Positions 11,617 to 59,011 are shown, counted from the stretch's first letter. The stretch: DNA of 64,000 nucleotides from Moniliella sp. 'wahieum' (GCA_003971905.1 RSEE01000057.1:248001-312000); one strand, 5' to 3'. Notes: generated by a model from the sequence alone, not told the origin. Made by a program: numbers and translations.

Positions 11617-12673
11617 GCTGGTGGCGGGGGCTGTGGGGGGCTGGGGGGCTGGGGCTGGGGCTAGGAAAGGAAAGGGAAAGGGGAAGGTGGGGGGGGGGGT
11701 GCGGCCGGCGGGCAGGGGGGAGAGGCAGAGGATATATATCAGCGGAGCTGCCATGCCATTATAGATGACAGCGGTGTCCTGCCGCCTGAGACAGCCGGCG
11801 CGCCATCCGACGGGCGGTGTCCATAACAGGCAGGCTGGGAGGATGGACGGGCCAGTGGCGGGCGGCGTGCGCCCACCGGCGCTGCGGAGAACGCACGCTG
11901 GAGGAGCACCTGCCCACTCGCCCCGTGCCCCCGCCCAACACCTGGCGATGGGGCGGCTTCGCCTCGGCTGGGGACGGCCAGAGGCAAAAGCAGAGCCAGA
12001 GAGCGCAGGTGCGCGTGGTCCCCCCCACCTCCGTGCATAAGGAGGGTCGCATTAGCCTGTACGCACCGCTCGGCAAAGCTTCTTGCCGCCCTCCTGGCAT
12101 GCGCTGCGTGTGCTGCTCCAGCCTCCGCTCCACCCACCACCCACCACGCCTCCAGACACCCCATTCTCTTGCATCCGGCCCATTCCGCCAGATATAACCG
12201 CGCACAGGCCCTCTCCCACCCAACCCTCTATGTTGCCGAACAGCCTTTTTGCTATGTAGCCTGCTCCACAGCCCCTGTGGCCGTTGGGCGGTGGGCGCTA
12301 CTGCTTATTGCCCCCCCCATCGACGCCATCAGGAGTGTTACAGACTTAATCCTTACCCCTTGTTGCTAATTGCTCCGTCCGTCTTCAAGCTTCAAGCTTC
12401 AAACCTTTTCAGGCCTCAGGTGGGGTATACGTGGCTGAATCATCCCGTGGCGAACGAGTGACGACTGTGTCGACTGTGTGTCCCCTGCTACCCTCGCCGT
12501 CGCCTAATCTTCCATTTTGCTCAGATCCATTATCCCATCCACACACAACCCTTACATGATGCCTGACGCATGACCCTGATCTAATCCCCAATCCATCATC
12601 GTCTGCAGTCGTGCATGCCTACTGATATAGTCCAGTGGATATCGCCACCCATCCTGTTCCCAGCAAAAGGAAA

Positions 12674-12762
12674 TTCCCCGACCGGGAGTCGAACCCGGGT
12701 CTTGACGGTCCTCCCGGTGGGTAGTTGAGAGCGTCACATCATAGCCGTTGGACCATCGAGGA
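12674..12762 (-). tRNA. tRNA-Glu (anticodon CTC) with a 17-nt intron
   Basis: Minus strand: TCCTCGA acceptor / TCGGGGA-A; anticodon stem TGACG/CGTCA with loop CT-CTC-A[ACTACCCACCGGGAGGA]C; T arm CCGGG-TTCGACT-CCCGG; T-rich run downstream. Confidence 0.95.
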
Positions 12763-12983
12763 GGCAATAATCGACAGGAACGATCGAGTATGTATACATT
12801 GGTGGCTGATGGGTGATGCATGATGCGTGAGCATAGCCCTTACTTGGTGGCGCCGCCGCGCTAGCAAGCCACGCCTGGGCTGCACTCGGGCGGCCACCAG
12901 GCACCAACCAACACCAACACCACCCGCCGTCGGCAGCGGTCCTTCCCTCCACTCACTAGTCGCCCTTCCTCACCCAGCCGCTC

Positions 12984-15932: not shown

Positions 15933-16033
15933 CTTGCTTCTGCTTCCCACCCTTGCCTGTCGTTCATTCATCCCTCTCTGCTACTACCGGACTTCTGATC
16001 CCCTTCCCCTCTTTTGAGTTCTTCTGTTGAGAA

Positions 16034-17261
16034 TCAATTCCCAAACGCGAGCTTGCGTGCGATTCGTCGTCGTTCGGCCAGGTCCCGGGCGGAGAGAGTA
16101 CCGTGCTTGCGGGATGGCAGTTGGGTTCGAGGCGAAGCCGGAGCCTGGGACCGTTTGCGCCCTACGATTTGCGGTGTCCGCGCTGTGGCGCCCGTGCGCA
16201 CTGCCGGCGCGCCCGGCTTGCCTGGCAACAAGGATGGATGAGTAGGTGCGGGCCAGGCAGAAAAGTACGCATGCTCCAGTGCCGCCTGCGCCGAGATGCG
16301 TTCTGCCGGGTTCACCGCAGCAACCCCGCCAGTAGCGATAAGTCCTCTTCCCGTGCCGCGAGAAAGGTGCCAGCTAAAGGCGGGGGCGGGTCTGGGCAAT
16401 GCTCTCGCCCAGCGCTTGCACCACCGCAGCCGAAGTGGCCTTCCAGCCGCGTAGGCTGCCGAGTCCGGGCCAGGTGGCTTCGCGCGGCATGCCACGCGCG
16501 CGACAGATGAGCTCGAATTGATGCATGTCGGACATGCCGGGCAAGTAGGGTTTGCGCAGGAGTTCGGCAAAGATGCACCCCACCGACCACATGTCGACCC
16601 GGTCGCCGTACCACCCCGCCCCGAGCAACAGCTCGGGCGGGCGGTACCAGAGTGTGATCACCTCGGTACTCATTGGCCGTGCTCCCGGGGACGGGGCAGG
16701 CACGTCGCGTGCCAAGCCAAAGTCGGCAATCTTCAGCACGCCCTGGGCCGAGAGGAGGAGGTTGTTGGGTTTCAAGTCGCGGTGCAGCACGCCGCGGCTG
16801 TGCAAATAAGCGACACCACGTAATGTCATGCCGAGCCAGGACTTGGTATCGGCGGGGTGATGGTAGTCTGGGTGTCACGGATAATGTCTTCCAAGCTGGC
16901 GCCGAGGAACTCGAGGACCATGTTGAACGCCGGGTGCCAGCCGCGGGAGAAGAGAACACATCGCGCAACAGCACGATGTTGGGATGGATCAGATCGCGAA
17001 GAAACTTGATCTCCCGCAACGCCGTCACATCCAGCCCGTCGCGACCGAGACCAGCTTGATCTTCTTGATCGCCACCGCCTCGCCCGTCGGCTCATGCCGC
17101 CCGAGAAAGACGGCGGCATAGGTACCCTCGCCAATCTTGGCCAGCTTGGCGTACGACTCGCGCACGCGCTTGTCTGACTCGGTCGCATCCAGCGCGAGTG
17201 CGGATGCCGGGACGGGTGCGGCGCTGGCCGGGGCGGCGAGGGCAGAGGGGGAGGAGGGCAT
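16034..17261 (-). CDS. KIN28: TFIIH/CAK cyclin-dependent kinase, CDK7/Kin28/Mcs6-like (frameshifted)
   Basis: [60 protein letters not shown]-terminal [11 protein letters not shown]. Confidence 0.82.
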
Positions 17262-17522
17262 GTGGTGGCCAGCTGGCGCGGCAGCATCCAGCCGCCCAAG
17301 CACCTCTGATGACGGCGACGACCAGATGACGTCAGCCGTATCGAGCCTCCCTGGCGGGCATTATGTCATCCGCCTATCGTCCGAATCAAGGCCAAGAGCT
17401 GGGGCAATCAATACATCTGACCCTCTCTGGACAGACAGCCGCCAGCGCCCCTCATCCGGCCATGCCCTGGAACGCAGCACGCGCTTGGGACCCCCAACGT
17501 AGCATCCCCCACTCAGATCTGC

Positions 17523-21130: not shown

Positions 21131-21454
21131 CGTCGGTTGACCTTTGTCGTATCGTGTTGTGGGGTCGACTAAACATAAGGAGCCGACGAGAAGACAAGGA
21201 GGAGAGTAACTTGGGGGAGAATAGGCAAGGCCACAGTAGGGGTTAGGGGCCGACCGGGGGGGGAGGGAGAGATGACTGTTGGTAGACTTGGGCAATGCGA
21301 CCCAGGTGGGCGAAGAAAGGCAGACTGCGCGCTGTCTCGTACGCTTCTCAACCACCGGCCACATGCCAGCTGAACTCCACGTACGCAGTCCCCGAGCCTG
21401 GGTCAGCACTGTACGGCAGTCCTAGTCAGCCCGCGAAGGCTGGTTCGGCCGGGC

Positions 21455-21540
21455 ATCACGTGATCACATCATGCACATCATCTGCATCATGCATCATGCA
21501 TCATCGATCATCGATCTCGATCATCTGAGATCCGATATCT
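21455..21540. repeat. 7-bp TNA+palindrome lattice cluster
   Basis: TGCA-TCA-TGCA-TCA-TGCA-TCA-TCGA-TCA-TCGA (21483-21514). Confidence 0.9.
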
Positions 21541-24147: not shown

Positions 24148-24644
24148 ATGCTAACCTGCTGTTCCTCTCAGCGATTAAGGCTAGGCCTGCTTGGCTGATG
24201 AACATACACATAAACGGGTGTCGAGGAAAGAGTAGCTGTGAAGAAAAAGAGGACGGTGAGAGGAGGAAAAAACTAGAACAGAATGCTTCTCACCAACGGT
24301 GTGTCAAATGTCAAAGCGGTTGAGGAAGTGCTGTTCGAAGTATTTGGAGGACGTAGGGAGAAGAAAACCATGTGGAATGTCCTTGATGCGCTGCGTTTGT
24401 AAGGAAAGCTCTCTTCCCAGGCTGAGCGCTGACGCGATGTGTGCGATTACATGTTACAAGGGAGGGTCCCCATCGAAAAGCACATATCACGCGCCAAGAT
24501 CTCACCCCCGAAGCGCCGACTGTTTGTATCGGGGATTAATGTGATTGTATAGTGACACGGACGGCCGGTGAGCCGATGAGAGCACCACTGTGCCTACTCT
24601 GCACGCCTACACTATATAGGGTCTTGAGCAGTGAGTAGTAGGCG

Positions 24645-24910
24645 GGCCTTGAAGCTTGAAGTTGAGATACTGAGATGTGAGTGGCATATGATAGCACAAA
24701 AGGCCTACAGTATGATAGCTATAGGGTAGCCGCGCCATACTGGGGATGAGATCTGAGATCGATGATCGATGACTGAGTGTTTGGCCAGGTTGCGAGACTG
24801 CGGAGTTCACATAGGTTCACACACATTCAAGTTCACAGTTAGGTAACGCACACTAAAATGCAGCTATTCGTATTGTGACTAGTGACTACTAGTGTCAAGC
24901 TTCAAGTGAC
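24645..24910. repeat. 7-bp TNA+palindrome lattice cluster
   Basis: TGA-AGCT-TGA, TGA-GATC-TGA, TGA-TCGA-TGA, TGA-CTAG-TGA and TCA-AGCT-TCA within 270 bp. Confidence 0.85.
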
Positions 24911-25029: not shown

Positions 25030-25770
25030 TATATCTCTCATCCTTTTCGCCTACCGTCACCATCAGCAATATACTATACTAGGCTCGCTCTTCCACCCTT
25101 TTTGCTCTCTGAAGTGATGGACGATATTTCCGCGCACATATACTACGGCCAACCCTCCACCTCATGCCTTGCAGCTTTCTCTCTGCAACTATACGGGCGC
25201 AATATTCAACACCTGTGGCGAGACGTTTTAATCCAATAACTATGAGTGTGGAGAGACGAAACATCATATGTTGGACCACACGCTGCGCGACACGGGAACG
25301 CAAGAGGCGCAGAGCGCGTACCGGCGGGTGGCGCACGAGAGCACTGCGTCGCCTTTTGAACGCCGCGAGAAGGAGCTGATTCGGCTGCTTGAACAAGCAG
25401 AATGCGACAAGAACGCCAAATACCAGGACGCACTCAAGAGCCGTTTTTCCCCTGGTTTTGACGACGCGATGATACTACGGCACCAAACAGCGGGCAAGAT
25501 ATTTGCGCATTGGCAGGATTTGGCTACTGAGTCTCAATGGAAATGGTTCCTCGCTCGGATGTCTACCACGTTCATCCGTGTCCACACGCGCTTCCTAGGG
25601 TACGGGACTGAATGACGACCACCGGAGGGTCCTGATATCCTGGCGACCCCCCTGGTTCCTTAACCTTGGTCGCGCTTCTAAGTAACCCCGCAAAATGAAC
25701 GGTTCGATTAGACGTAGCGTTCCCCCTGTCCCAGCCTTAAGCTCTGTCAATGATATGGATTCAATAGTAG
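25030..25770 (+). mobile_element. Decayed 3' part of a CRE/Cnl1-like non-LTR retrotransposon (family 1, copy A)
   Basis: Zn-knuckle relic NTCGETF*SNNYECG, then LLEQAECDKNAKY..RFSP..TAGKIFAHWQ..SQWKWFLARMSTTFIRVHTRF, the C-terminal pattern of REL-endonuclease elements. The 3' end CCTTAAGCTCTGTCAATGAT is shared with 3 other loci. Confidence 0.7.
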
Positions 25771-26499: not shown

Positions 26500-26880
26500 A
26501 GTGGTAACAGGAGATGGAAATGGGGGAAAGGGCAAGGATCATTCATCGAATGGAAAGGAAACGAGGTATATATGCCTCGGAGAGAAGAAGAGAACATGCG
26601 AGCTAAATCACATGGAGGGAAAGAGGGAGCACAATCCAAAGGGGGGGAAACAGAGTCTAGAATAAATCAAGGGGGCAGACAACTTGGTGACAAAAACGTG
26701 ATCAAGTGAGTCTGATCCCGACAAGTGGAATGGTCAAGAGAACAGGTTGGGTTACAGGACACCCACGTCCACAAAGAGCCTACTGTGGAGGAGAAGAGGA
26801 TGGGACGAGGGGCGGGAGGAAGGGATTGCGGACTTGCTACCGCGTGATGTCGCCTAGGGCAATCGGAGGATCAGGAATGG
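26500..26880 (-). mobile_element. Decayed CRE-like 3' end (family 2)
   Basis: Minus-strand RPILFSSTVG-like relic, and DNA similarity of 26570-26730 to 52300-52500 (CATGCGAGCTA..TCACA, CAACTT..GTGACAA). Confidence 0.45.
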
Positions 26881-27390
26881 AGGTGGACCACCGGCTGCGC
26901 GACTACTCAGCAGGCACAAACCGTGCACCTAAGGTGTATAGGTACATGAGAGCACCCCGACGCCTTTGGAACGCCAGAGAAGTAGGAGTTGCTTCGGCTG
27001 CTGGAACAAGCAGAATGCGACTAGAACGCCAAGTACCATGGATGCACCCTAGAATCGTTTTCTCCCCTGGCATTGACGATGCAAGGATACTACAGCACCA
27101 AGACAGGGGGCAAGATTTTGGGAACTGGAAGGATTTGACTACTGAATCTCAATGAGAGATGGTGCCTCGCTCGGATGTCTACTACGTTCATCGTATCCAC
27201 ACGCATTTCCTCTGATAAACGGATGGTGGGAACCAGCGGTTACTGAGGTCCTGGCAATTCTCCTGGTTCCTTAACCGGGGCTGGCGCTAACAAGTAGCAC
27301 ACGCAGGATGAACGGGTTGATTTAGGCGCAGCGTTTCTTTGGCCCACAGCCTTAAGCTCTGTCAATGATCATTATGGTTGCAGTATAGGA
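26880..27390 (+). mobile_element. Decayed CRE-like 3' part (family 1, copy B)
   Basis: Clearly alignable to ~25270-25770 (e.g. TTCGGCTGCT.GAACAAGCAGAATGCGAC, CCTCGCTCGGATGTCTAC, CAGCCTTAAGCTCTGTCAATGAT), with many indels. Confidence 0.75.
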
Positions 27391-28010
27391 TTTTTTTTTT
27401 TGCCGCTTATCTGGCCTGCTGGCGATGGCTTTTGCCTTCTAATTAGATGGGCTCAAGTTGTGGCAAACGTCGGATGGGCGTGCCTGCCGGCCAAGACGTT
27501 TCTCCTGTTCTTATTATTGCGCCCCTGGGTTTTGCCAATTCTCCTCGCTCAACACACTGAGCTTCTACAAACTGGGGTAAATGCAAGACACCTAGATGAA
27601 TATGCGATTTGAACATTGCAGCTGCGGATGCATGATGCATGGCGATGCATGTGATGCATGTGATGCGTGGTGAGATGGATGATGTAATCCATGGTTCTTG
27701 TTCCGTGCAGGTATATTCTACAGCCTGTAAGCACTGAGCAGGTGTGAAGAGGTGTGCAGCCGTCCGCCTGGCACATACCACAAGGAAAAGCCATTTGTTT
27801 CTCTTACCCTCCTGGCGCGGGGGGACCTTCCCTCGTGGGAAACCATGCATACGCTGCGCACACGTTCGGACATCTACTTTGGGTCCAGGGTCTTTTACGC
27901 TAATGGCCCTTGTATATATATCCAAGAACCAGGGAGGGGCATTTGTGTTTCTTCCCCACCACACTGGCGTACCACCTACCATGGTTAACATGCGTTCTTG
28001 GGGTGAAAAA

Positions 28011-29372: not shown

Positions 29373-30214
29373 TTTTTGTGAGCGCAGCCCACCCTTCCGT
29401 AGCAGGCCGCAGCAGCCGAGTGCTTGCCGGCGCTTGCTTGCCGCTTTCTTGCCGCGCTGCTTGTCAGCTTCGGCATCTGGTGCACAGCCACCGCCTGCCA
29501 CCCCGGCTCGCCCCGCGCCCCTGCGAACCACTGGGGCTCGGCACTCGCCCACAACACTTGCGCCCTGCGGCCAGCCGGTGGCAGCCAAGATTCTAGGGTT
29601 CTCGGCTGTGCCACCCGGCAAGACGCCGTAGCAGATGCGCGGCGGTGGCCTGGGGGGCCTCCACCGCCGCACACTGCCCCTGTGCTGCGCATGGCTGGAT
29701 CATCGACAGCACACCGCTGAGCTGCTGCCATAGAAAGGGCGATGCGAACCAGCCCGGGGGGGCTGAGGCAGAGCACTGGGGCACTCTTGAGCTGCCGGGC
29801 TGCTGCGGTTGGGCCGCTGAAGCCCATCGCTGATCGGCGGGCAGCAGTGTGTGATGAATTAATGGGCAGGCGAGCGCGGCCTGGGGCCCGTGTGAGATCT
29901 GAGATCGAGCATCGGCCAGCGACGCCGCGGCGCACTGCCCCCGCGTGCTGCGCAGCAGGCGCACAGGTGGGTGGCCGAGCTGGCTGAGCGCAACCAGTGC
30001 CGCCGTGTGCTGGGATCGGCGCGCCCGCCCTTATGACGCATGACGTAAGACACTCGTGTGGGTCTGGGGCGCAAGGCAGTGCGCAGCAATTCGCCGCCCA
30101 CCCGCCCCTACGCTCGCCCCCGCCCCAGCCAGGCGGCGGCCGGCGTCCCACCGCGCTCCCCCGAAGCGCCTTCCCCCCCACCTCCACCCCCCCCCCCACC
30201 CACTCCCTCCCGCC

Positions 30215-33090: not shown

Positions 33091-33394
33091 GGGTGCGGTG
33101 GGAGAAGCTCGTGACGCGGGCTGGGCGGCTACTCCGGCGTCCACCTACCTGCTCGTCTTGGCTGGCTTTCCGATTATCGATTACGGTGCAGGGCTGCCAC
33201 CGCCCAACCCACTCGCGGGCGGACATTAAACTAGGGTTGGGCCCCGGTGGGCGAGGCACGGGGGCGCCCACTTGACCGCTGCGGCCCTCCGCTCGGGTTA
33301 GGGTTGCCCCCTGGCCAGCTTCACCACCCCTGCGTCCAATTGATGGGATAGCAGGACAAAGGGGCCGCGCTGCCGCGCCTTTGACCGACCAAAG
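33091..33394. promoter_or_regulatory. Compact bidirectional promoter of RPL5/RPL15 with two TAGGGTT telobox/Tbf1-like sites
   Basis: Divergent ATGs 304 bp apart; CTAGGGTTG at 33231 and GGGTTAGGGTTG at ~33295. Confidence 0.55.
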
Positions 33395-34003: not shown

Positions 34004-35004
34004 ATGGCTATGCGGACTTGGTCCCTTCCCTCGTTGTCTTCCTATGGGCGTGGTCTCCGATCGGCTCCCATTCTTTCCCTGTCGCTTTGCTTTGCCTTCG
34101 TTCGAAGCAGTTCTCAACCCCTGGCATTTTCCTCCCCACATTGCTCTCATCCCTGCCTTCTCTTTGTTCGTCAGCTATCCCATTCTGCCCCTCAAAAATG
34201 GCATCTGCCTTTTCGCATTCTTTTGGTGTGTGCACATCCATATACGATTTTGGTAGTAGTCAGAGATCATAGATGATGGGCTTGAGGGACTTTTTAATCC
34301 ATCGTGACTCTTGCGTGGGGGAAGTAGGTCAGGTGAGCGAGTGTGCCCTTGTGTGCGCCTGATTGGTCTGTCTGAGGCCTGACGTTGAAGTATCACAGTG
34401 CCTACCACGACTCCCTTGCCTTAGGCCTTAGGTTAATGATCGATGCTTTCTGATTGTGGAGGGAGTGGTGCCAATATCCAATGCGCACTTGCATCTGGCA
34501 GCTGGTGAGTGTGGCGGCCCACATATCGGAAGGCTTGATCTCATGCATCATGCACCGCATGCAGAAACTGGCTCTGAAGCTTCACTGAAGGCTCAGCGCG
34601 TCCGAGCCTGCACCTCACCCGATCCTATCTTTCTCCCCCGACGCGATCTCTCCCAGGCCCGTTGCGCAACGAGCGACATGGGACATGCGCAGATGGCATG
34701 GCGGGGCCTAGGGCCAGTGCGCAAGTCGACAGGACGCACACAAGGACATGATGCATGTGCATGAATATGAATGCCCACGATTTGGGCCTGATAGGTCTGA
34801 TACAGCAGGGCACAAAAGGATACAAGATGCAAAAGGATACAGCTGATGGGCTGTGCTGCGCCAAACAGCACGTGGCCATTGGATGATGATCCCTATGGTG
34901 CCACGGTTCCACCTCCTGTGGCTGGCGTGTGGCGAGCGGTGCAGGTGAAACGCGTTTTGCCGTTGTCGAAGGAAACAGCAAGTCGCTCTCACTGGCACTG
35001 GCGA

Positions 35005-35157
35005 CTTGGAAGCTTGGAGCTTGCAGGCTTGAAGCCTGAGTCTGACTAGTGACTAGAGTGAGTGACTTGGGTAGTGACTTCGTGATAGTGGCCGGTGAGC
35101 CCGGTGCCGATGTCGATGACCACATGAGATCGATGATCAATGATCGATGATCGATGA
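35005..35157. repeat. 7-bp TNA+palindrome lattice cluster upstream of UGP1
   Basis: TGA-CTAG-TGA-CTAG (35043) and TCGA-TGA-TCAA-TGA-TCGA-TGA-TCGA-TGA (35130-35157). Confidence 0.85.
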
Positions 35158-35642: not shown

Positions 35643-37219
<1,577 letters not shown>

Positions 37220-37659: not shown

Positions 37660-37885
37660 TCGCTTCAAGCTTCATAGCTTCATCTCGCTTTTCTCCGACC
37701 CCTCCCCACGGCTAAACCGCCGGTAAGGTGTAACAAGTAACGTGTAACCCGGATACCTCCATGCCTTGCACGTTTTGAAGCTCAGGACGCTCAGCTAGCG
37801 CTCAGCCGCTCAGAGCGGATCAGGCTGAGCGGCTCAGGGCGCTGATCGATGATCAGCGAGCGCTCAGTGCCTCAGCTCGGGTCTC
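37660..37885. repeat. 7-bp lattice cluster, GCTCA/TGAGC-rich
   Basis: TCA-AGCT-TCA, repeated CGCTCAG units, TGA-TCGA-TGA, GAGCGCTCA. Confidence 0.75.
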
Positions 37886-38659
37886 ACTCAATGCCGCCCA
37901 GAGTGCTTCCGAGCGACGCTGTAAACTCCGGTATTTGACTAGTTGACTGGTGGAGGTAAGGAAGTGGAGGCTGTGGAGGCAACCCTAGCAACCCTAGTGC
38001 ACAATTTTTGCCGGGATGCCATAGCATTTTTTTCAGCGCACTTGGACGAGCAGGGTATAAAAGGCGTGTGTGGTGGCTCCCTGTCTGCAAACCAAGACCA
38101 TTCTCAGCAGAATCTGTGCATACAGTTATCTTCCGAGTCTGGCCAGCTCTATTTTTGAGCCACAAACTACAGGGCAGAGGATGAATCCTTTGGTTCTTGT
38201 ACGTCTCGCCCTTAAGCAGTGAGGAGCAACGGCCCTTCCCTTCGGGGTCGATGTCGCCTTCCGATGACCTGGCCACCCTCCGTCCCATTACCCGCGTGCT
38301 CGTTTGAGTTGCAGGGGCCGTGAGGCGTGGAGGCGAGATGGCCAAATTCTGATGCCTCCCTGTACGCAATTGTCATCCACATCACAATGTTATCTTACTC
38401 TCAGGTGACCTCTGGTAACTTGCATCGCGGCCAGTATTGACAGACCTTTTAATACCTGCGCCCGATTGGCCAGCGTCAGCGCCTTTGGGAGCACGGGCTA
38501 TCCTCTCTGAAAGTTCCCCACATTCTGTTTATACCTGTCATGCATCATGAGGCACTTGAGGCCTGGTTCCTCCTGTATATAAGCAACCCTGTCTAGATGG
38601 TCAGGCTTGCTAACTGTGGTCCTCATCGACGGTCCTGTTACACCTGTTACACCTGTCCC

Positions 38660-39270
38660 CGTTCCAATCATTCCATTCCTCTCTCGCCCTTCCACCTTTT
38701 CTATCACCCTTACGAATTTACGACTAGCGTCGGTTCCACTGCAAGCCGCGGTTGCTCTCAGTGACGCGTGTGCTCTTCATTAGGACTCCGTCTGATTCCG
38801 CCTATTACACTGTGGCGCGTCTCGAGTGTGGTAACGCCCCAGGAAACCCACATTACACCGGAGTTCCAAGACCCCTGTAACAGGTCTGACGAACTACGTC
38901 GCTGCTCCTTCCTCAGAGAGTCTGAGCTGCGGCCTTTTGGCACGCACAGGCAGCCACCCAACCTAGTAGAGGGTCTCTCCCTCGCCTCTGCACCCGCTCG
39001 GTTCGACTACGATATGATATATGAGGCCGGACATTCCGTACGTGACTCCGATTGGCCGTCCCAGGGTTTGTATGCCTAAACTATAGGAGTGGGTCCCACC
39101 TCGGGACTTCCCCCGGTCGGTCATGATGAGAAAGAGAGAGACCGATGGTGTGTTTTCACATTGCAATTAATCCCTCGGAGACTGGCGTGTGTGTTGGTCA
39201 TCTCGGAAGGCGTCTAAGCCAGTATATATGGCTTAAGGGGCACGAATGACCCTCTCACAGACACCTTAAT
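38660..39270 (+). mobile_element. Decayed CRE/Cnl1-like non-LTR retrotransposon REL-endonuclease region
   Basis: Broken frames give SIPLSP..ITPYEF, then ELRPFGTHRQ..VEG..FDYDMIY, then HLGRRLS..LK(A)R. This is the motif order expected at the C-terminus of CRE-clade ORFs. Confidence 0.5.
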
Positions 39271-41080
39271 CAACATTATTGAGATGGGGAGAACTGGTAG
39301 TAGAGGGTATAAAGAAGGAATTGGTTAAAAATAATACACGGCAAACGATGGGGTAGGTGGTCTTTATTGCTCAACCGAGTAGGGCTGTGTACTAGTGCTA
39401 CTGAATGAGCAGGAACATTAAAATACGAGACTTTTCGCCTGTCGTGATTGAAGCTCGCTCACATCCGGTGTTTGCTGTCAGTGCGCTCGCCCACAAGCAA
39501 GAGTAGGCCGATGACGACGTCATGACCAGCAGGCCAAGACAACCCTCCGCTCCCGCCACATTTCATTTCCAAGCCTTCGACGGATGGAGAGCGAGGACTG
39601 AGGGGGGAGGGTAGTCGGACGAACCGATGAACGTATGGTGGGCATCTGCAAGATGTATGACGCGCTTCTCCCTCCTGTTCAATCTCTTCTTGGCAGTCTT
39701 TTGGCCGCATATAGAGTACCACCCGCTTGTCGTGCATCACAGTGCTGCATCAGCGCATCCAACATCAATGCATCAACCACCCGAAGGGGTATCGGAGTTC
39801 GCCGTGCTGACGCATGACGTCTTGCGCGCCCAAGCGCCCCCCGCTCCCACAGATCCTATACCCCCCCACCGAAAGGCAATTCTGATCCGAGAGACCGGTG
39901 TGGTAGGCCCTAGTGACGGTGACATGTGACAGGGAGTATGCATTGTGAAAGTTGAAAAAGAATCTCAAGACCCATTGGTCCCGGTAACGTGTAATCGATA
40001 ATCGGAGAGTTCAATATCGATGATCGATCATAGCGCTGGCCGAGGAGCACTAACATGTAAGACACAGCGGAGCTTTATGTTTTTTGGCCCTTCTATTGGG
40101 TTGACGCGTGACACATGGACTTGACCGGTGACCAGTGACTGGCGAAGCCGGAGGGGTGCCAGGGATGTCCTGGGTTACCTTTTGGTCCATGCATGGTACA
40201 TTCATTTAGTTCCTGGACCCTCCCCTTACGACATCTATGGCACGCTGCCTGTCTTACCCAGGCACACCTGTCCGACACTAATAAGCACCACCACAGCACA
40301 CTGCCCCTCTGCCCTCCTCTTCTGGCAGGCCAAGCTAAGCCAAGCAAGCCAAGCCGGGCACTTCTTGTGCACGTCTCCTCCACGTGTGGGTTACACCCTC
40401 GTTCTCCCCTGAGGCCTGAACGCCAGAGAAGGAACGCCGCGTGTTGCCAATATAGACCATGGCATTATGGAAAGCACCTGTATAGCAATTCTACAGAGCC
40501 CGCCGTTTTAGGCTCCTTTACGCCTTCGAAAGACTGTAGTCTCCATCTTAATTTCTCACCAGCCCTTGCGTCTGTTGCCCTCCTTAGACTCCCACTGTTT
40601 CTCGTCATCGCTCCGTTGCCCGCGTTACGCAGAAGAAAAAAATCTCTGCGGGATAGTCGATAGCCAAAAGCTACTTCGGTTTTGCTATAACCATGGTTCC
40701 TGATGCATGAGGCTTGAGGCCCTGAAGCCCTCAGGATTCCAGTCTGAAGCGTCAAGTTCAAGACTGATGTGAAGCGTGTGACGGTTGAAGACATTTCGAG
40801 CATGAAATAGAGTGCCTTTTATTCGCGCAAAACGTCTTTAACCACGTCTCACGATCTGTTTTACCCAAAGAGTGCACGCCTCGCCGCTGTTATGGCTCAC
40901 TGCACAACGTCTGTGTCAGGCCCTATATGCACATCCGTCCTTGGCATCCCGGATGCTCACCATATCGTCATTGGAGCGAGGGTCACATGTCGCATGTCAC
41001 ACCAAAAAGGAAGTTTCTTGGGCTGCATAGCAGGTGTTTAATAACGGCCACGTATTGAGATTGGGCAGCCGCAAGCAAGC

Positions 41081-46137: not shown

Positions 46138-46180
46138 GAATCCATATCATTGACAGAGCTTAAGGCTGGGACAGGGGGAA
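46138..46180 (-). mobile_element. 43-bp terminal fragment of CRE-like family 1
   Basis: Exact reverse complement of 25720-25762. Confidence 0.75.
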
Positions 46181-47306
46181 TAGATCGGGGGAGCGTGTGA
46201 TCGTTTCTGAGAAGCGTGAAGGGCTAAAGACTATTACTGAAAAGGGTTTGGCGATGCATGGATGAACTCTGTCACATGTCATCGAAGATCCGAAACAAAT
46301 ATATTTATTCACGTGTGGACGTAGAAAATAGAATGTGTGAGAGAAAGACGGGGCTATAGCACTGCCAATAATGCCTCCGCCTGCGCCCAGCTCTCTTGCC
46401 TCGCCAAAGCTCTGGGCACCACAAGTTCTACGTCAACGTTCAACGTTGATCTTAGTACCACTCACACATGTTGAGCGTTCAAAACGTTTTCAACCGTTGA
46501 ACGTCCTCCATCCAAAGTTCATGGGTTACTATATCAGTTCAGTACACACAGCCTCTTCACAGATATACACAAAGATAGAGCCTGGACCTTTTTTGCCTTC
46601 GACAAGCATTCGCTCTATTATTATACGCTGACATATGTTTTGCTTCGTGTTCTTTTACCCACATATATCCAACCAACCAGCCTCCGTTGCTAGAGTGCGA
46701 CTTGGGAGCACTCGCGATCCTATGGATCAGCTGCAAAGCAGCCTTCAGACAAGGCGTGAAGGCAAAGTGGTGAGCCACAAGTCTTCAAGCAACGTCTGAA
46801 GGGAAGGAGAAAGGAGAGAGAGAGGGAGATGGAGCGAGCACGGCGTGCGCGGCCTGCGAGCGGAACGCTTCCGCTCGGCTAGGCGAGCGTCACCGATCCA
46901 TTGAGGCCGCGCAGGAGAACCCTAGCAGTACCTCTAACATCCGTTGGTCAAAAGGAAAAGAAATGGATTACAGCACAGAGAACACTGCAACGTGTGGCTG
47001 CCTGCCCATTCTAAAAAAAGAAAAGAAAGCAATCGCTTCCATCGTCCATCCCTACGAAATCGATGAGAGAAGAAAGGTCCAAAGGGGGGAATGTAGAGCA
47101 GCCACTCAGTAACTGCGAGCTCTTGGCCTCTATTAGCCGCGAACTCATTTCGTTCTTCTATGGAAAAGTGAAACCAAGCTTGCGGCTCTTCTTGCCAAGA
47201 TGGACTGCGAATCATCCCTTCGGCCTTTCAGCCACGGAAGACGCGCTCGCTCCTGACTCCTGCCTGTGGTGACAAGCGTTTTCCGGTGCGGATATGATGT
47301 TCTTGC

Positions 47307-50300: not shown

Positions 50301-51366
50301 CCTCGGGGGTGTAGTTGAACTTCCATTCGGTCATGATCACGTCCTCTTCAGTATGCGGGAATGTGCGGACATAGGTGATCTGAGGCGCCTTGGAGCCAAG
50401 GGTGAACTGGGTCAAACGGATAGCATCTAAAAATGAAGGGCAGTTCTGAACAAGGATGCCATCAGCAATCTGGATAACCTGGCAGAGAGGGCGGGCATAT
50501 AGATGGGCCAGAATCGAGCGAAGAAGTTGTTCAGCCACATCATCTTCTCTCCGTCTCCGTCCGACACATCCTCCAGGGCCTTCTTGCGGATGATGATACG
50601 CTCCTGATCATCCTTGTAGCGCATAGCAACGCGCTCTAACGCCCGGTTGTACGCGGCGATTACGAACATGCCTACAATGATCATCCCCGCAAAGCCCAGC
50701 CGAATTTTGGTGAAGAACCAAACAAAGGCTGAGGCACCAAGGATGACGGAACCATGGGAAAGGAAGTAGCCCACATGACTGTGTGAGACATGGTCGCGCA
50801 CACAGAACACGGTGGCCATATGACCTTCTTTGGCACCAGAAGCGACAGTGGTGGCGAGTTCTTTGGATTGCGGGTCCTGCACTGGCGCAGTGGGTGCCTT
50901 GGGCGCAGGAGCCTCAGCCTCACCCTCAACAGCCATGCCGGGTGGAGCAACAAGATGGCCAGCATCATCGTATGTCGCGGAGGGGTTCGAGGCGCCGCTC
51001 GAGATTGGATGCTTGGCTGCCTGAACGGCTTCCTTGGCTGGGGCTGGGGGGAGAGAAAGAAGGTAAGCAGGTGTGCCGACCAAAGAGGGGATAAAAGCAC
51101 GCACCAAGGCTTGTCAACCCCCCAGTGGGGTCCTGCATCAAGCCGTGGCGGATGGCGGGCTGGGCTTGCTCAGCGGCCTTGACGGAGGGTGCGGTGTTCA
51201 TATCAAATGGGGGCACGAGGGCGGCTGGGCGGCAATTGTGGGCTCAGGCTGACCCCACGGGCCTCAGCCACAGGGGGCGATGCTTGGGCGCAGACGACGG
51301 TTGTCGCAAGAGGCGCGTCTGCTCCCCGCCGGGGTGGTGGGCGCCGAGGTGTGGCAGATGCACCAT
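47307..51366 (-). CDS. TCB: Tricalbin (N-terminal TM hairpin, SMP domain, multiple C2 domains); heavily frameshifted
   Basis: WLNNFFARFWPIYMP, FLDAIRLTQFTLGSKAP, FSGTLRVQFKLISNFPNVQTV, IPGLNEFIQGQVHANLGPMMYSP, C2 motifs (PDPYVSL, NPNWRETKF, IEVRDWDQLG). Start is tentative. Confidence 0.85.
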
Positions 51367-52143
51367 ATCTTGGCTGCTGGTGTTGGTCGTTAGGAGGGGA
51401 GCGGTGGAGGAGGGTGGAAGAGCTTGTCGGGAGCAGCGATCCAACCCCTGCCCTCAGAGCGCCAAGCGAGCTTGAAACCTTGAGCGCTCTCTCCACTCGG
51501 CACTTGCGCTGCCAAAGTGCGCCTTCAGTCCAGCAGTCGCCCTGCCTGGTGGCGCCCACAGCTTCGCTCTTCCATCGCTCCCCCTGCAGCACGCCCGCCG
51601 CCCTGCACCCCACAGTGTGCATGCGCGCCGGATGTGCAGCCCAGGGACACTGGCGCCCTGCTGATGCACCACATGCACCTCGCACTCACTCATATCACAC
51701 ACAGGGCATACCCGGGGACCTGCAGCACCACACCGCACATCCCCAGTGTGCCTCACACATCGCAGCATGGGCCGTGCACTCTCCATATATACGGCCACGA
51801 AGAAATCGGCACCTCGTGACCACGTGACCCCCAAACCATGCCACAATCCATTCAAGCCTAATAAGCCTCTCTTACAAGCTACTTGCACGAGAAAAGTCAC
51901 TCTCGTCTGTTCTGTTGTCCCCCCCTCTTTCACTTTTAAAGGCGCACGGGCCACAGAATGTCATCAACGCGCACCCACCCATTGACACTGTGTGGTTGTC
52001 TCCTTCAGCATTAGACGACCACGACGAGACGCTCAGCAACGCCCGGCATTGTCCGTGCTGCGGAACTATAGTAGCGAGATATGTATATAGCGCGTATACC
52101 CCCGACACTATTTATATAGTGGCGCTACCGATAAGTAACTCAT

Positions 52144-52226
52144 CACGCAAGATGAACGGGTCGGTTTAGGCGTAGCGTTTCCCTGTTCCAACCTTAAGCT
52201 CTGTCAATGATATGGATGCAGTATAG
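52144..52226 (+). mobile_element. Short 3'-terminal fragment of CRE-like family 1 (copy C)
   Basis: CACGCAAGATGAACGGGT..TTTAGGCGTAGCGTTTC..CCTTAAGCTCTGTCAATGATATGGATGCAGTATAG aligns with the ends of copies A and B. Confidence 0.75.
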
Positions 52227-52299
52227 CAAAGACAGATTGAGTTGGTTTTAAGCGCGAAAAGTCGAGCTGAGAGAACACAAGTGGAGAGTATACCTTACA

Positions 52300-53200
52300 C
52301 TGCAGCCTCAGAGAAAGGACCCATGCGAGCTATAAGTCACAAAAAGAAGGGGGGGGGGGGGGGTAATGAGCGCTCGATCGGCTGAGCGCTGGAGAGCATA
52401 TTAAGCAAGAAAGGGGGAAAATGGATCCGTAGAACAGAACAAAGGTCCAGCCCAACTTTTGTGACAATACGTACGACCACAAAGGTGTGCGTGATCCTGA
52501 TAATGGCCAATAGGAGCATACGCTCAAAACCTCCCATCTGTGATGGCGTTGGTGGCTTATCCTCAGGCGGAGACCTTCTCCCTGCCAATCGGGATAAGAC
52601 CCATGTAATATGACTGAACGCATTACAGATCCAAAAAGTCCAAGGAACACTGGCGTGAGCGTCAAGGGAAAAGCGGGACCCGAGACAAGAAACGAGGCGA
52701 GAGAGCGAGTCGAAATCATGTGTATTGTGTTTTGGCTTTTAGACGAGCGCGAGCGAGAAGAGACGATTTGTTATGAGTTTGTTGATGGGCCGAGAATCCG
52801 AGTCACGAGAGCGAAGGATAGAAAACTTGAGTAGTGTTGATAGGAAAAGAAGCAGAAGCGAGAGCGACGATGAGGAAGTGGAGGTGGCGCGACTTAATCG
52901 TCACCCCGTGACAGCGTCTGATGTGCTCACGCTCAAGAAAAGGGACCGTGTGTGGCCACGTTGATGCACTCCCTCTCTGTGTTGATCTGCTCTTTTGGGA
53001 AGAGTCGCAACCGTGATGCCGAAACATCTCCCTCCCAAAAAAAGCAGTGTCAAAATGCATGGCCAAACACGACGAAAAGGTCACAGCGGATGTGATTATC
53101 GCTTTTGAGTGAGATACAGGCTCGCGAATGGACCAGCCCATGGTGGAAACACGTTTCCCATTTGTAATAGGCACGCATCGAGGACGGTGGCACCCGACCT
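52300..53200 (-). mobile_element. Decayed CRE-like REL region and 3'UTR (family 2)
   Basis: Broken frames give GWSIREPV / DNHIRCDLFVVFG / LTPVFLGLFGSVMRS..DWQ / SQMGGFERMLLLAIIRITHTF. The 3'UTR is similar to 26570-26730. Confidence 0.5.
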
Positions 53201-54861
53201 ACAAGTTAGGAGTGTGCTTTATTTGAAGGAGAAGAGACCACTCATTTCTTACCAATACTAAGAACTTATTGGTGACGGATCAGATCGGCGCTAGTGTCGA
53301 GGCGAAATCCACATCAGGGCTTTGGCTCGCGTGGCAAAAGGTTCCATTTGTAATATTGCGCCCGATTGAACAAGACCAATAGTGTGCCTGCAGTCCTTTA
53401 TATTAACAGAGAGTTGAATGGAATGGAGACGCAAAACACGAAACAGGATGGAACAAATGCCCTGCTATCATTGGAAGAACTCGACTAAACCCTCAGAACG
53501 TAACGGAGACCAACAAAAGAAAGGATCTCGGCCGAGGGGAAGGGACTCGATCTAGGTTGCCCACAATAGAAAAGGGAACATGCTCCTTTCGAAGTAAAGT
53601 TGTATATATCTGTGTTTTGTGGTGGGACACCCCCCCCCCCCCCCCCCCCCGGCCTTGGAAAGACACAACCCACAGGGAAGAGAGACAAGAGGGGAACTTG
53701 TAATAGGCTCCGCACGACTCGTATATGCTCTCCTTCTCGTCCATAACACCGCTGATATAGGAGATGATTTATGCCGTGAAGTGTGTCCATATGAGGTACG
53801 TTCTACGGAAAGCTGTTGACTGTGATGCTCCGGCTCCCAACAGGTAGACCAGGCTCGCCTCGGTTCCATCAACAACGCTGCGGGTATCGTCCCACCATGA
53901 CACTTCCCCTAAGCCCTGCATTGCCTCCTGTGTGCCTCACTGGTCCTATGCCTAGTCCGGCCTCCTAAATAGATGCCTCTGCACCCACAGACCCAACTCT
54001 GGCTCTAATTCATCACCTTCTCTCCTCAGGCCTCAGGCCTCTCAGATCTCATCCTTCTGCCCGTCCGGCTCCCTAGTCCAACACCTGGAACACCGTGTGG
54101 GTTGGAGAGCATCGTGTGCGGCGTTAACGTTTGACAGCGTGGGGGGAGCGCCGGAGAACTGTGGACATGTGCCTGGGATTGTCGCGGCCACAAGAGGTGT
54201 GGGGAAGCAAGCGGTGCAAAAAACATCGTCTCGAGACATGCGCATCGCTTCACCGGCCGGTGTCTACTTTGGTCCGAAAACGCCTATCGCAGTAGTATGG
54301 AAATGCGAGGCCGGCGGAGGAGGTCGAGGAGGGGAGACGACATTTGTATTCAGACCTGGGTTTCTCCTACTCGGCCATCGATCAGGCCGGTGCATTTTCA
54401 ATGCATCATGCATCATGGGGCCAGTGATTAATGATGCCTCAGACATTCGTTGTGCCTGAGGGGGCTAAGAGGCCTGAGGTGCCTGAGGTCAGGGCAGAAA
54501 CGGCCTTTTTGACATTGGGAAACCCCACACACCGCGATAATCGATGACCGGATAACCCCGACCTCCTCAGACATCAGGAAAAAGGAGGCACTGAAAGGCG
54601 CTGTGTTTACGGTGGGATATAGTGCTGTGGCAATAAATGATGTTTTGCCTTGTCTTTCCGCACCCCACACGAACTGCAAGGGGTGTTTCGCATTGCCCCG
54701 CAAAGGCTAGACCGAACAGATACCGGGCTGTGGCGGGGTGCTTGAATCAATTCAAAGCGCCCGCCTAGGTGATGCATGGTCACGCGTCACGCGTCCCGCG
54801 TCCCGCGTCAGTATCACGGCCATCTGGTGCCTGGTGTTCAATATGTAGAAGATCTACGGGA

Positions 54862-54900
54862 TGATGCATGATGCATGATGCATGATGCATGATTAATGAT
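54862..54900. repeat. (TGATGCA)4 continuing in register as TGA-TTAA-TGA
   Basis: Directly visible. Confidence 0.95.
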
Positions 54901-55183
54901 TGTCGATTGCACGGCATCCGACGTCTACGAGAATTGAGCACATCATGACATCATGCAATGAGAGAGGAAGATACATAAACCAGTGCAAACTGAAGAAGTG
55001 GAACGGCCCAAATCTAAGATCTAAGCACGACCGATGAGACACCTAGTCTCTGTCACTGTTGGGAGAGCACAAAAGTGCCAGCCGGACTCCTTCCCCTGAA
55101 TATAGTTACCACCCAGCATTCCTCTTTTCCTCCTTTTCTTTTTGGCTCGACTTCGATGCTTCAAGTTCAAATTCAACGTTCAC

Positions 55184-55218
55184 GCTTCAAGCTTCAAGCT
55201 TCAAGCTTCAAGCTTCAA
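55184..55218. repeat. (GCTTCAA)5 heptamer microsatellite (TCA-AGCT lattice)
   Basis: Five perfect copies, with degenerate flanks from 55158 to 55225. Confidence 0.97.
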
Positions 55219-56259
55219 TCTTCAAAATATATACGTCCTGGTTTTGATATTGGCCTCGGTGCCTCTCCCACTGCTTCCACATCCTTAAGGAGGAGAGCTC
55301 GGTATGTGCATCACATGCGCATCCGAGGTCTAGGTCAAAAAAGTATGTAATAAGAAAGTCTCAGCAGGATATATAGGGCCTAAGGCCTAAGAAGTAAGGC
55401 TTAAAGGCTGCTATACTATGTTTGCTTGGTATACTGGTCGGTAATCGACAGCCGCCTAAACCTCAACAGCTGTGCAGTGCCGGCACTATACATGTCTTCT
55501 GTTACCTAGGGCGCACCCACAGGTGTACTTGTCTCTACATGTGTGTTCGATTATCGATTATCGATCGGTGCTCTGAACACAACAAGAGCGGGGGGCTGCG
55601 AGCTGGCGAGGCCAGGAAGGGCCTGGACCTGGAGTCTAGGCTGGCCTACGCACTATGTAGCTATAGCCCTCTTTCGCACTGTGTGGCAGTACTCAGTCAC
55701 CTTCAGCACCATGTATGATTCACATCATGCATCACGTATCACACATCATGCATCATGTGCTTGTGCGCCACCGCAAGTCCGCGACTCGGCGCAGGGCCAC
55801 TCTGAGAGCCCCACGCCGGCAGTCGCTGGCCCCGTGCCGCGCAAGCGTGTGGGGGCCATGTGATATGCACGGTGGTTTGGTCTGGCCCCCCAAGCTACCA
55901 GCCACGGTGGGACGGTGGTGCGAAGAACCGAGGGGCAGAGCCCAAGGAAGGACCCCTCGAACGCTGCGGCGGTCCTGTTCTCCAACCCCCGCTTTTCCCA
56001 ACCTCCACACTGCGACAATTCACAGTCATAATGGATTGTGAATGGGAGGAGAGGGAGCGATGAGAGTGGGGGCGTATGCTGTCGTCTGCCAGGAAGTATA
56101 TAAACCTACTGTGCCGCACCCTCCATCCGTAAGTTCCGTCTTGCCCCCCGCCGCCTTTCCTCTACAGTCCCCCCTCCTGCCAACGTGGTGTGCTCTCTTT
56201 CTTCCAATCTACCCTGAAGCCCCTCTTCTTCTCACCCAACACAACACAGCCCCACCACT

Positions 56260-58183
56260 ATGCCTGCCATCGCCAGTGAGGGCGTCGCCTTCCACAAGCC
56301 TGCCGACATGAGTGTCCGGCAGTCCATGCCTGCCATCCTTATTGGCATAGCTGCTGCCATGGGCGGCCTGCTGTATGGCTACGACACTGGCACCATTTCG
56401 GGTACGTGTGTTCCCTCTGGAGTCATGTGCTTGCATATATATATGTCAACGTGATCAATGGCCTCGCCTATCTCTGATTGTTCTCGGACGATGAGTCTCT
56501 GACCAAAAAAGTTTGCTGTTCATATGCACAGGTCTTCTGGACCAAGCCAGCTTCAAGAGAAACTTTGGCAACTTGGAACTTTATGACTCCGGAAGCGACG
56601 GCCCCGTATACGACCCTCATTGGGGTCTGTCTACCTCCACTACCTCGATGGTCACCTCGCTCCTCTCTGTGGGGACCTTTATCGGTGCCCTGGTTGGCGC
56701 CCCTTTCGGTGATTACCTGGGCCGAAAAAATGCGGTTCACATTGCCAACCTCATCTTTGTGTTGGGTGTAGCCCTCCAAACTGGCGCGCCGCACCTTGGC
56801 ATGTTTGTCGGAGGACGCGTCGTTGCTGGCTTGGGTGTGGGCATTATCTCTACCGTTATCCCGACATACCAGTCCGAAACAGCACCGCGCTGGATCCGTG
56901 GCGCAATCGTCGGGGCCTATCAGTGGGCGATCACCATCGGTCTCTTGCTCGCGTCCGGCGTCAACCTGGGCAGCCATCAGTACTCGGATAGCACTACGGC
57001 TCAGTACCGTGTTCCGATTGGTGTTCAATTTGCTTGGGCTATTGCACTCTCTGTGGGCCTTTTGTTCATGCCCGAGTCGCCACGTTGGCTCATCCGCAGC
57101 GGCCGGGACACTCAGGCACGCCAAGCGCTCGGACGACTGTATTCCTTCGCTCCTGACAGCGAAGCCGTCGACCTTGAATATAAAGAAATCAAATCAAACC
57201 TGGAGGAGGAGCTACACCAGGTATCGCCAGGTATTCACGGTTACATCGACTGTTTCCGTATGGGTAACAAAAAGTACCTGCTGCGCACATTGACCGGGGT
57301 TTTCATCCAATGTGAGTACCAATGTCGAGACTACAGATCTGGCGATTTTGCCGATTGTTTTCATGGCCACACAGTTACTGACCTGGACTTTTCCTTACTG
57401 GTGTCTTCGTTCCTTTGTTCAGTCTGGCAACAGTTTACTGGCATCAACTACATTATGTATTATGGAACCGTATTTGGAGCCCAGGCAATCCCCTCTTTGG
57501 ACCCCTTCGTCTTTGCGTTGATTCCTGCCATCGTCAATGTGGTCACCACGATTCCCGGGTTGTTGTTGGTCGACAAGGTAGGTCGGCGTCGTATGCTAAT
57601 TGCCGGAGCGGCTTGGATGGCGCTGTGTCACTTGATTGTGGCCGTCGTATCCATCACGACGCCGGAGAGCAACATACCTTCGCGCAACGCTATGGTTGCC
57701 TTCGTCTGTCTCTTCGTCGCTGGCTTTGCGCCCACGTGGGGCCCGATCGCCTGGGTTGTTTGTGGCGAAATCTTCCCCTTGGCCATTCGTGCCAAGGGGA
57801 TGAGCTTGTGCTCGGCATCAAATTGGGCGATCAATGTCGCCCTCGGTTCCTCCACTCCTTACATTGTTGAGCGCATCGGGACTAAGGTGTTCTTTGTCTG
57901 GATGTCGACCACCCTATGTGGCTTGGTGTTCGTCTATTTCTTTGTGTATGAGACTGCGGGCCTGTCGCTCGAGGAGGTGGACGTGATGTACGGGCAAACG
58001 ACCACACTCAAGTCGGCCGCATTCAACAAAGAGATGCGTGCACGCCGTGGCCAGGCCCCCGAAAGTGACGTGGACGGGCTGGGCGAGTCTGCCCGGTGGC
58101 ATAACACGCCCTCGGAAGAGGGCGCCGACTTGGCCGAAAAGAAAATTGAGGGCACTCAATTTGGCACACTCGACTCGGCTTGA
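56260..58183 (+). CDS. MFS sugar porter (hexose transporter)
   Basis: GGLLYGYDTGTISG, DYLGRK, GGRVVAGLGVG, YQSETAPRWIRG, MPESPRWL, QQFTGINY, VDKVGRR, WGPIAWVVCGEIFP, YETAGLSLEEVD; introns 56402-56531 and 57312-57422. Confidence 0.96.
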
Positions 58184-59011
58184 CCACTCACACTTTAAGT
58201 TCTCGCACCAAGGCGTGCGTGCCGCATTGTTACCGGTTTCCCAGGTTTCCCTTGTCTCTTCGAGCTTCACGCCTGCACCCTCCTCTGCCTCTCCCTATAC
58301 ATATGCGCAAAAAGCGCTTTCCATCCTGATAATAGGTCGTGTTCTCTGTGTCCGCGCCACTGTCATATATGGGTGTGGGTTTGCATGCTTCACTGCCTCT
58401 TCGATGCTGCTCCATGCTCCCCCGTTGCTGTTCCTTCTTTGACGGGCTCCCAACCAGGCAGGGGTCACCGGTCATCGTCCCCCCTCTTTTCCTTATGGTG
58501 GCACTGTTTAAGACCTAAGAAGTAAGTATAAGTCTGACCACACAGCAGCATGCCATAGCAGTGTGCGATCAACCACGGAATTGTGCACGGTAGTAGGAGG
58601 ACAGATTGGCTTGGTCCACGCGTAGTACAGACTTGGGGTGGACGGAGACAAACCGGCTCCGGTCACCGGCTGGCCTCCGGGTGCCGGTTGGGGAAACCGG
58701 TTGCGCCGGAGCAGACGTGGCCAAAATGAAATTGGAATCGGCCATCTTCGGGCCATCGCCTCGCTCCGGCCCGGGTCCCGGAGAAGGCTGGGCGGCCCAG
58801 CACGGGGGCTGTGTGCTGCACCCGGGCCACGGCGGAAGCCACGGCGGGCGGATGGGCGCGCAGCGTGAGTACGACGCCAGCACAGTGGGATCGATCAAGC
58901 TGAAGCTTCATTTGAAGCTTGAACCTGGCAGCTCCCTTGCCGGCCGCCCGACGCTGGAAGCCAAGGCCAATCGCACGCTCCCTTCCTTTCCCACCACCAC
59001 CTGCCTCCGCC

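Follow-up and report, generated by a model that had tools for sequence, protein, structure and literature searches.

Intergenic heptamer repeats of a Moniliella genome are made of a stereotyped, flank-templated 7-bp mutation scar at TNA sites

What produces the short 7-bp-period repeats found in most long intergenic regions of a 64,000-nt stretch of Moniliella sp. 'wahieum' (GCA_003971905.1, RSEE01000057.1:248001-312000)? This stretch, hereafter the window (positions 1-64000), is a portion of contig C57 of a 69.5-Mb assembly in 223 contigs. The ribosomal protein L15 that it encodes is 79-82% identical to those of Ustilaginomycotina (Ceraceosorus, Parajaminaea, Tilletia, Violaceomyces), and the organism is therefore a smut-related basidiomycete. 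A preliminary description of the window proposed that the repeats follow one rule, TNA alternating with any 4-bp palindrome, and attributed them either to a symmetrising mutational process or to arrays of sites for a binding or nucleosome-positioning factor. Our results show that the pattern is a real, genome-wide and stereotyped mutation scar, and not a binding lattice.

The rule withstood counting. In the window, 66 of the 181 TNA-N4-TNA 10-mers have a palindromic core, while 100 runs of an order-4 Markov model averaged 7.9 such 10-mers and never gave more than 15, so that palindromic cores are enriched over background as the preliminary description supposed. The control frames ANT, CNG and GNC yielded 6/115, 12/348 and 17/393, and non-palindromic TNA-N4-TNA showed no clear excess over other spacings. 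Among the perfect period-7 tandems of the window, 23/30 consist of TNA plus a palindrome. In a 482-kb sample of one haplotype (372 kb of C57 plus 110 kb of C1 and C2), the core is palindromic in 544/1276 TNA-N4-TNA, with three controls at 5.7-5.9%. One AGCT-type 17-mer was counted 2280 times in the genome, its reversed control not once, and the two-unit version of the pattern is palindromic in 30 of 30 cases in this genome.

Most details of the first account stood as well. A full TNA-palindrome-TNA 10-mer lies at most 8 nt from 28 of the 32 coordinates it quoted; the other four (27625, 37858, 45597 and 52367) are partial or decayed units. The pattern is present inside the range given, 12380..58925, but reaches further, with a scar at 60283. 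The statement that N can be C, G, T or A needs qualifying, since N is C or G in 404/488; it is identical in both TNA copies in 444/544 units of the 482-kb sample. The heptamer ATTCGTG, which the same account mentioned for Ustilago maydis, has, as written there, a non-palindromic core and would fall outside the rule.

A collinear second copy of the window is found on contig C67 (G000:C67:87400-153700), at about 88-97% identity over most blocks, and the assembly therefore holds two haplotypes. Their divergence is about 3.4% substitutions over the 265 kb aligned of 372 kb given. From this alignment we used the 2949 of 4046 indels with clean flanks and excluded the remainder. Clean indels of 5, 6, 7, 8 and 9 bp numbered 40, 45, 73, 29 and 22. 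Fifty of the 73 7-bp indels are a duplication of five bases plus two bases that reverse-complement its end (termed 5+2), and in 43 of these 50 the duplication starts with TNA. The two alleles then read TNAwx and TNAwx-x'w'-TNAwx, and the flank supplies the core. The preliminary description had suggested an alignment of strains; that of the two haplotypes revealed units that differ by one 7-bp indel each, for which the flank is the template. The long allele was found in either haplotype (23 and 27 cases). Only 6/43 short alleles were already symmetric, and because the other 37 were not, slippage of an existing unit is no explanation. The 43 empty sites share T-N-A, then C at the next position (21/43), and no further consensus. 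Templating from the flank suggests that the process is one of insertion. We also observed, in the second haplotype, 5+2 insertions at GCA and TTG, not TNA (window 34610-34625, 21280-21295).

The same relation between core and flank holds for established units. In the 482-kb sample, the core is predicted by the adjacent dinucleotide in 374 of the 444 units with the same N in both copies; these 374 are the scars counted below, at a density of about 0.8 per kb. The two mirror classes are equal: the core agrees with the right flank in 131 units, the left in 129, both in 114 and neither in 70. One site can give two different cores, depending on the flank copied, and this accounts for the in-register core switches. 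Of 27 arrays with such a switch, 16 have end cores that follow from both outer flanks, 8 from one of them and 3 from neither. At TNA, plain 7-bp duplications whose junction is not palindromic numbered 24, below the controls (41, 45, 57). Arrays, once formed, may lengthen by slippage. Flank-templated 7-bp indels and flank-predicted cores support the mutational branch of the preliminary description, with its hairpin opening and excision footprints. Its 3-bp target duplication does not fit, as the duplicated stretch extends two bases on each side of TNA, which suggests 7 bp.

This extension was seen in the rarer 8- and 9-bp forms, which retain bases of both flanks; the longest hold all 7 duplicated bases and two palindromic ones. 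With sites already symmetric removed beforehand, 5-base junctions made from both flank palindromes occurred in 43/300 TNA pairs (controls 4/195, 22/819, 17/983), 6-base junctions in 25/361 (controls 6/260, 7/1068, 9/1245) and 7-base junctions in 0/227. When the two palindromic bases and the two bases right of TNA were held constant, the pattern was present with 0, 1, 2 and 3 further left bases in 488/646, 43/128, 38/106 and 0/6 (controls 35/826, 21/279, 20/256, 2/66). The extra left bases match the site's own flank in 38/50 cases for one base (shifted control 12), in 26/57 for two (shifted control 7) and in 0/3 for three. The duplication extends 0, 1 or 2 bases beyond TNA and not 3, the latter on small numbers (0/6 and 0/3). 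Microhomology of at least 2 nt between the predicted overhangs was found in 16/38 of the 8-bp and 10/26 of the 9-bp forms, compared with 10/260 and 20/260 ordinary sites. Haplotype indels fitting the 8- or 9-bp rule were 1/29 of those of 8 bp and 1/22 of those of 9 bp. The 8- and 9-bp forms point to a target duplication of 7 bp, nnTNAnn. We rejected a duplication of 3 bp whose core came from the element, as the core follows the flank. A 5-bp duplication was rejected as well: the 43 empty sites give no symmetric 5-bp consensus, and 6- and 7-base duplications exist.

We then looked at where scars lie. By a coding model trained on the sequence itself, crude and prone to miss genes, 2/374 scars fall in coding-like DNA versus 3315/17875 TNA sites, in agreement with the reported absence of the repeats from coding sequence. 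No scars were present in 45.8 kb of same-strand gaps shorter than 600 bp, which comprise introns and missed exons. In gaps longer than 1.5 kb, scars per 100 TNA sites were 3.6 (divergent), 3.2 (tandem) and 0.9 (convergent), with 176 scars in edge segments left unclassed by gap type. Sites are clustered: 49% of distinct sites lie at most 150 bp from another, while 200 random draws gave a mean of 33% and a maximum of 43%. Young copies of a long interspersed nuclear element (LINE) contain 0 scars in 29 kb and their 3' flanks 44 in 27 kb. This placement fits targeting of open intergenic chromatin.

Clustering, location in long non-coding gaps and the excess of divergent and tandem over convergent gaps would also be expected of selected site arrays for a dimeric TNA-N4-TNA binder or a nucleosome-positioning factor. 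We nevertheless consider such arrays very improbable. A binder would not tie the core to its flanking dinucleotide, nor does it account for the lack of a clear excess of non-palindromic TNA-N4-TNA. Of 211 aligned scars, no more than 84 have an identical counterpart in the other haplotype, and 48 fall mostly in gaps there (counts without a matched neutral control). Young LINEs, moreover, also lie in scar-rich DNA, as shared open chromatin would predict. To a sequencing or assembly artefact we give next to no credence. Scars were seen in assembly sequence alone, and 1-bp indels and frameshifts are numerous across the assembly, which suggests error-prone long reads; yet 84 scars are identical in two separately assembled haplotypes, and hardly any occur in coding-like DNA and LINE copies, which have TNA sites by the thousand.

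How could such a scar arise? The 7-bp gain converts ab-TNA-wx into ab-TNA-[wx x'w']-TNA-wx or its mirror, ab-TNA-[b'a' ab]-TNA-wx. From these sequences we think it reasonably probable that the scars are excision footprints of an undescribed cut-and-paste element with a 7-bp, TNA-centred target. A dimeric DDE transposase would insert with a 7-nt stagger centred on TNA, so that abTNAwx is duplicated. On excision, each flank would be sealed as a hairpin exactly at the end of the duplication, and a host nuclease would open each hairpin 2 nt past its tip, leaving the 4-nt 3' overhangs wx x'w' and b'a'ab. End joining would keep one overhang and drop the other, giving the mirror 7-bp scars with N unchanged, and overhangs overlapped by microhomology would give the 8- or 9-bp forms. 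Each scar would contain two new targets; repeated hits and slippage would then build in-register arrays, with a core switch where left-flank and right-flank products meet. The relations between alleles are observed directly, whereas the transposase, the hairpins and the end joining are what we infer from them. Both steps have precedents: PMC5499845 describes flank hairpins produced by MULE, hAT, Transib and RAG, and PMC2175297 describes hairpin opening by Artemis mainly at +2, with 4-nt 3' overhangs.

The 5+2 form can also be obtained with no element at all, by replication template switching, in which the new strand turns back on itself at TNA, copies two bases and primes again five bases upstream; the T/A pair would offer a one-base microhomology. 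We regard this as improbable. ANT, CNG and GNC should work equally and remain at chance, a zero-loop turn is required, and neither the both-flank junctions nor the stop at two bases is predicted. The 45.8 kb of short same-strand gaps and the 29 kb of young LINE copies, free of scars, speak against it too. A fold-back favoured by stable GNA mini-loops was rejected, only TNA being enriched.

Several results weigh against excision by a cut-and-paste element. Among the clean 7-bp indels, 23/73 fit no 5+2 rule, and 7 of the 50 that do are without TNA, so that the TNA target rule is not absolute. Single haplotype indels are unpolarised, without an outgroup. Extrapolation from 374 scars in 482 kb gives about 27,000 scars per haplotype, a high number for a sample in which interspersed repeats make up about 3%. 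The 11-bp form that would keep both overhangs (8-base junction) was found in 1/204, and 2/172 in the other haplotype. Minor classes were counted on the two strands together, with some tandems of 8- and 9-mers among them. Opening by Artemis is reported to spread from +1 to +4, and the outcome here is tighter. Excision of Muta1 is given in PMC5499845 as more than 90% precise, and more events would thus be needed here.

The search for the element adds to these points. No element with a matching target duplication was established in the 0.97 Mb (about 1.4% of the assembly) scanned for full sites. The sole candidate full site, L071:7609-8096, is 488 bp long with 10-bp perfect inverted ends and a 7-bp repeat centred on TCA. 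It was rejected: it is a single locus that both haplotypes share, chance would yield about as much, and the genome has no other copy. Its end pattern has 17 genome-wide matches, four of which are its own two ends in two haplotypes; the other 13 have no partner end within 1.5 kb. Among large haplotype-specific insertions (16 alignment gaps and 35 internal gaps of at least 30 bp), no inverted-end element with an nnTNAnn duplication was found. A haplotype-specific 2-kb element, L074:4369-6324, was discarded: it has 158-bp inverted ends, but no target duplication and no Pfam match. Its ends resemble the DIRS type.

Whole-genome searches with PF05699, PF13359, PF10551, PF18758, PF03184 and PF13358, which cover hAT, Harbinger, MULE, KDZ, pogo and Tc1, gave no match, although the controls too were silent for PF05699, PF18758 and PF03184. 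For hAT, whose dimerisation domain is PF05699, DUF659 and DUF4371 were not searched; DDE_Tnp_4 (PIF/Harbinger) was positive in 1/14 control genomes and the MULE domain PF10551 in 3/14, PF00872 not being searched. Dada, Kolobok, Academ, Zator, Sola, Merlin, P, piggyBac, Ginger, Plavaka and RAG1 PF12940 were left out of the profile searches, and several of the superfamilies from Dada to Plavaka are without a Pfam model in PMC5751038. A Pfam scan of 20 open reading frames (ORFs) from repeats and insertions detected no transposase. The most abundant repeat found was rejected as the source, since it is a young retroelement without long terminal repeats (non-LTR) whose junctions are A-rich, not TNA. 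This family, with more than 800 first-look candidates, has many copies 97-99% alike, a fixed 3' end, variable 5' truncation and two 3' tail types. It occurs in the window at 25270-25766, 26758-27388, 46138-46180 and 52132-52230, and also in L211-L235; we take its motifs to recall the CRE or restriction-like endonuclease group.

A search with Transposase_21 (PF02992) did return two matches, on C17 and C34, both CMC-type and one of them above the curated cut-off; such a profile search can therefore detect in this assembly. The 2-3 kb to each side of the two genes contain no inverted ends and no target duplication, and both genes are frameshifted, possibly through assembly errors. The C34 gene (G000:C34:511001-519100) lies between a transporter-like and a phosphatase-like gene, both named by eye, and, compared by eye with the alignment consensus, retains D, D, CxxC, DxxH and E in their places. 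Its nearest relatives are 27-39% identical over short stretches, the named ones being from Tilletia indica, and it is possibly domesticated. A fragment of it had no sequence match in the PDB, and its predicted fold reached a pLDDT (predicted local distance difference test) of 42. The spacers around it are short and scar-rich. In the C17 gene (G000:C17:553701-562000) the first catalytic D reads H; a Walker-A gene that resembles, by eye, a RAD51 paralogue lies about 1 kb downstream. Both CMC-type genes are leads only, and nothing ties them to the scars.

These genes bear on another origin, a host-kept, transposase-derived enzyme that would carry out the same chemistry at TNA in open chromatin without a mobile element. 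Such an enzyme, for instance the product of a CMC-type gene, would make the hairpinned ends, with their 7-nt duplication, itself or via a short-lived passenger DNA. It would agree with the failure to find an element despite a very high scar number, with the two Transposase_21 genes that lack inverted ends and target duplications nearby, and with a C34 gene that sits between two ordinary-looking genes, keeps catalytic-type residues and has distant relatives; the Atlas also lists, as a weak likeness, a RAG1 cluster for the C17 copy, at a score of 0.92 and with 142 features in common. However, a filled-in 7-bp duplication plus end hairpins is what a resident element yields, and we know of no element-free route to such ends. 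A kept host gene would be expected in both haplotypes, and each CMC-type gene gave one match; the altered residue of C17, the frameshifts and the uninformative fold of C34 speak against it too. We therefore hold a host-kept enzyme to be unlikely, though worth keeping in view, and the narrower proposal, in which a RAG-like CMC transposase that lacks a mobile element would have placed flank-templated 7-bp insertions by the tens of thousands in open intergenic DNA, to be decidedly doubtful.

Excision footprints of a cut-and-paste element, our preferred explanation, have relatives among known systems but no exact match. Transib and RAG target duplications are 5 bp, unlike here, where 6 bases are duplicated in the 8-bp forms and 7 in the 9-bp forms; those of MULEs are usually 8-10 bp. 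hAT footprints are varied and odd-centred on the complement of the last flank base, whereas the core described here is a uniform, even 4-mer holding both flank bases, with N unchanged in 444/544. PIF/Harbinger and IS5-type elements use 3-bp TNA/TWA targets; they share the symmetric T-N-A, but the duplication here is longer, up to 7 bp. The CMC (CACTA/EnSpm) elements of basidiomycetes, akin to Transib/RAG and with known duplications of 2-4 bp, likewise have Transposase_21 genes, and the nearest relatives of those in this genome are in Tilletia. Slippage heptamer microsatellites also form period-7 runs that vary in length between haplotypes; unlike theirs, the first unit here is born in one step from unique sequence.

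Among the systems with flank hairpins, V(D)J coding joints (RAG1/2 plus Artemis) likewise carry even-centred palindromic P nucleotides, mostly 2 nt, and microhomology-guided joins; unlike them, the joins here carry a duplicated 7-bp, TNA-centred target and occur genome-wide between genes. The MULE Muta1 also leaves host-opened flank hairpins involving both whole flank strands (43+43 nt), and hAT elements (Ac/Ds, Hermes, Ascot-1) leave flank hairpins and palindromic footprints, both according to PMC5499845. Transib is reported in PMC5751038 to be absent from fungi, and Repbase includes hAT families with 7-bp duplications, as PMC4455052 indicates. By analogy, the working would resemble that of a V(D)J coding joint or of MULE/Transib donor repair, while the comparisons made with hAT, Transib, MULE and Harbinger speak against membership. 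We could not match the predicted chemistry (7-bp TNA-centred duplication, even hairpins opened at +2) to any described fungal element. In metagenome contigs, a degenerate version of the repeat gave, among the 121 matches listed, 65 palindromic and 46 non-palindromic runs; none of these 121 (41 of them short-flanked) had more than two such sites outside the match or a many-core pattern. No description of the pattern was found in the literature searched, which left out most subscription papers.

The sites of the window are collected in Table 1.

Table 1. Scars, arrays and related sites in the window, with the state of the second haplotype where it differs.
Position	Feature	Second haplotype
12385..12401	AGCT two-unit array	
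12409..12418	Single scar, core GGCC, predicted by right flank	
21415..21430	Empty allele	7-bp insertion
21483..21514	In-register switch TGCA to TCGA; left core equals left flank, right core equals right flank	
24423..24432	Single scar, core GCGC, left-flank class	
24447..24456	Scar, core CATG	Absent
24747..24772	Two scars, GATC and TCGA	GATC scar absent, flanks unclean
24876..24904	Two scars, cores CTAG and AGCT	
27627..27666	Decayed TGCA array; terminal 9-bp-class unit 27650-27665 (full 7-bp duplication plus 2 palindromic bases)	
29893..29906	Scar, core GATC	
33174..33183	Scar about 220 bp upstream of ribosomal protein L15 ORF	
34418..34432	GGCC array	Longer
35043..35157	CTAG scar at 35043 and two-unit TCGA array 35141-35157	
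37665..37684	7-bp scar, then 8-bp-class unit	
37934..37948	8-bp-class unit (6 duplicated bases plus 2 palindromic)	
39015..39024	Scar, core TATA	Absent
39763..39777	8-bp-class unit	
39920..39929	Scar, core CATG	Absent
46433..46449	ACGT array	One unit shorter
54026..54051	GGCC and GATC scars opening dense cluster 54.0-55.8 kb	
54402..54417	TGCA array	
54780..54793	CGCG scar and slipped, decayed extension	Extension absent
54862..54899	Five-unit array, switch TGCA to TTAA; last core equals right flank	
55015..55024	GATC scar of the left-flank class	
55158..55225	Array region of greatest length, with some 10 imperfect units and, at 55187-55217, a perfect run of AGCT units	Shorter
55377..55391	GGCC array	Longer
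55547..55565	TCGA array	One unit shorter
55723..55757	Decayed TGCA array, two intact units	
58465..58474	Scar, core CCGG	Absent
58901..58910	Palindromic 10-mer, unlike N, without flank match; not a clear scar	
60283..60292	Scar past the range first described	Absent, flanks unclean

Other features of the window and its counterpart were seen on the way. The haplotypes differ by many presence/absence stretches of 100-2000 bp, often without a clear target duplication, which suggests a hybrid or an old dikaryon. A long minus-strand gene contains a direct duplication of about 630 bp (5684-6316 / 7115-7744), and the one ORF of this gene that was examined (4267-5136) has no Pfam match. Two older interspersed repeat families, at 52539-52924 and 53813-54085, have dozens of copies at 75-87% identity; these copies could polarise the 7-bp events.

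For this lineage, the scars are a leading type of non-coding mutation, and 7 bp is the commonest clean indel size above 4 bp. They offer an origin of microsatellites without a slippage start, in which a break-and-rejoin scar recreates its own target and grows in register. If a host-kept CMC enzyme were responsible after all, it would be the main source of the heptamer repeats of the lineage and a standing mutator of promoter DNA. Because the target rule is so precise, the missing element or enzyme can be searched for directly, and the scars, by the thousand, would document the opening and joining of DNA hairpins in a fungus, a step that vertebrates use in V(D)J recombination.

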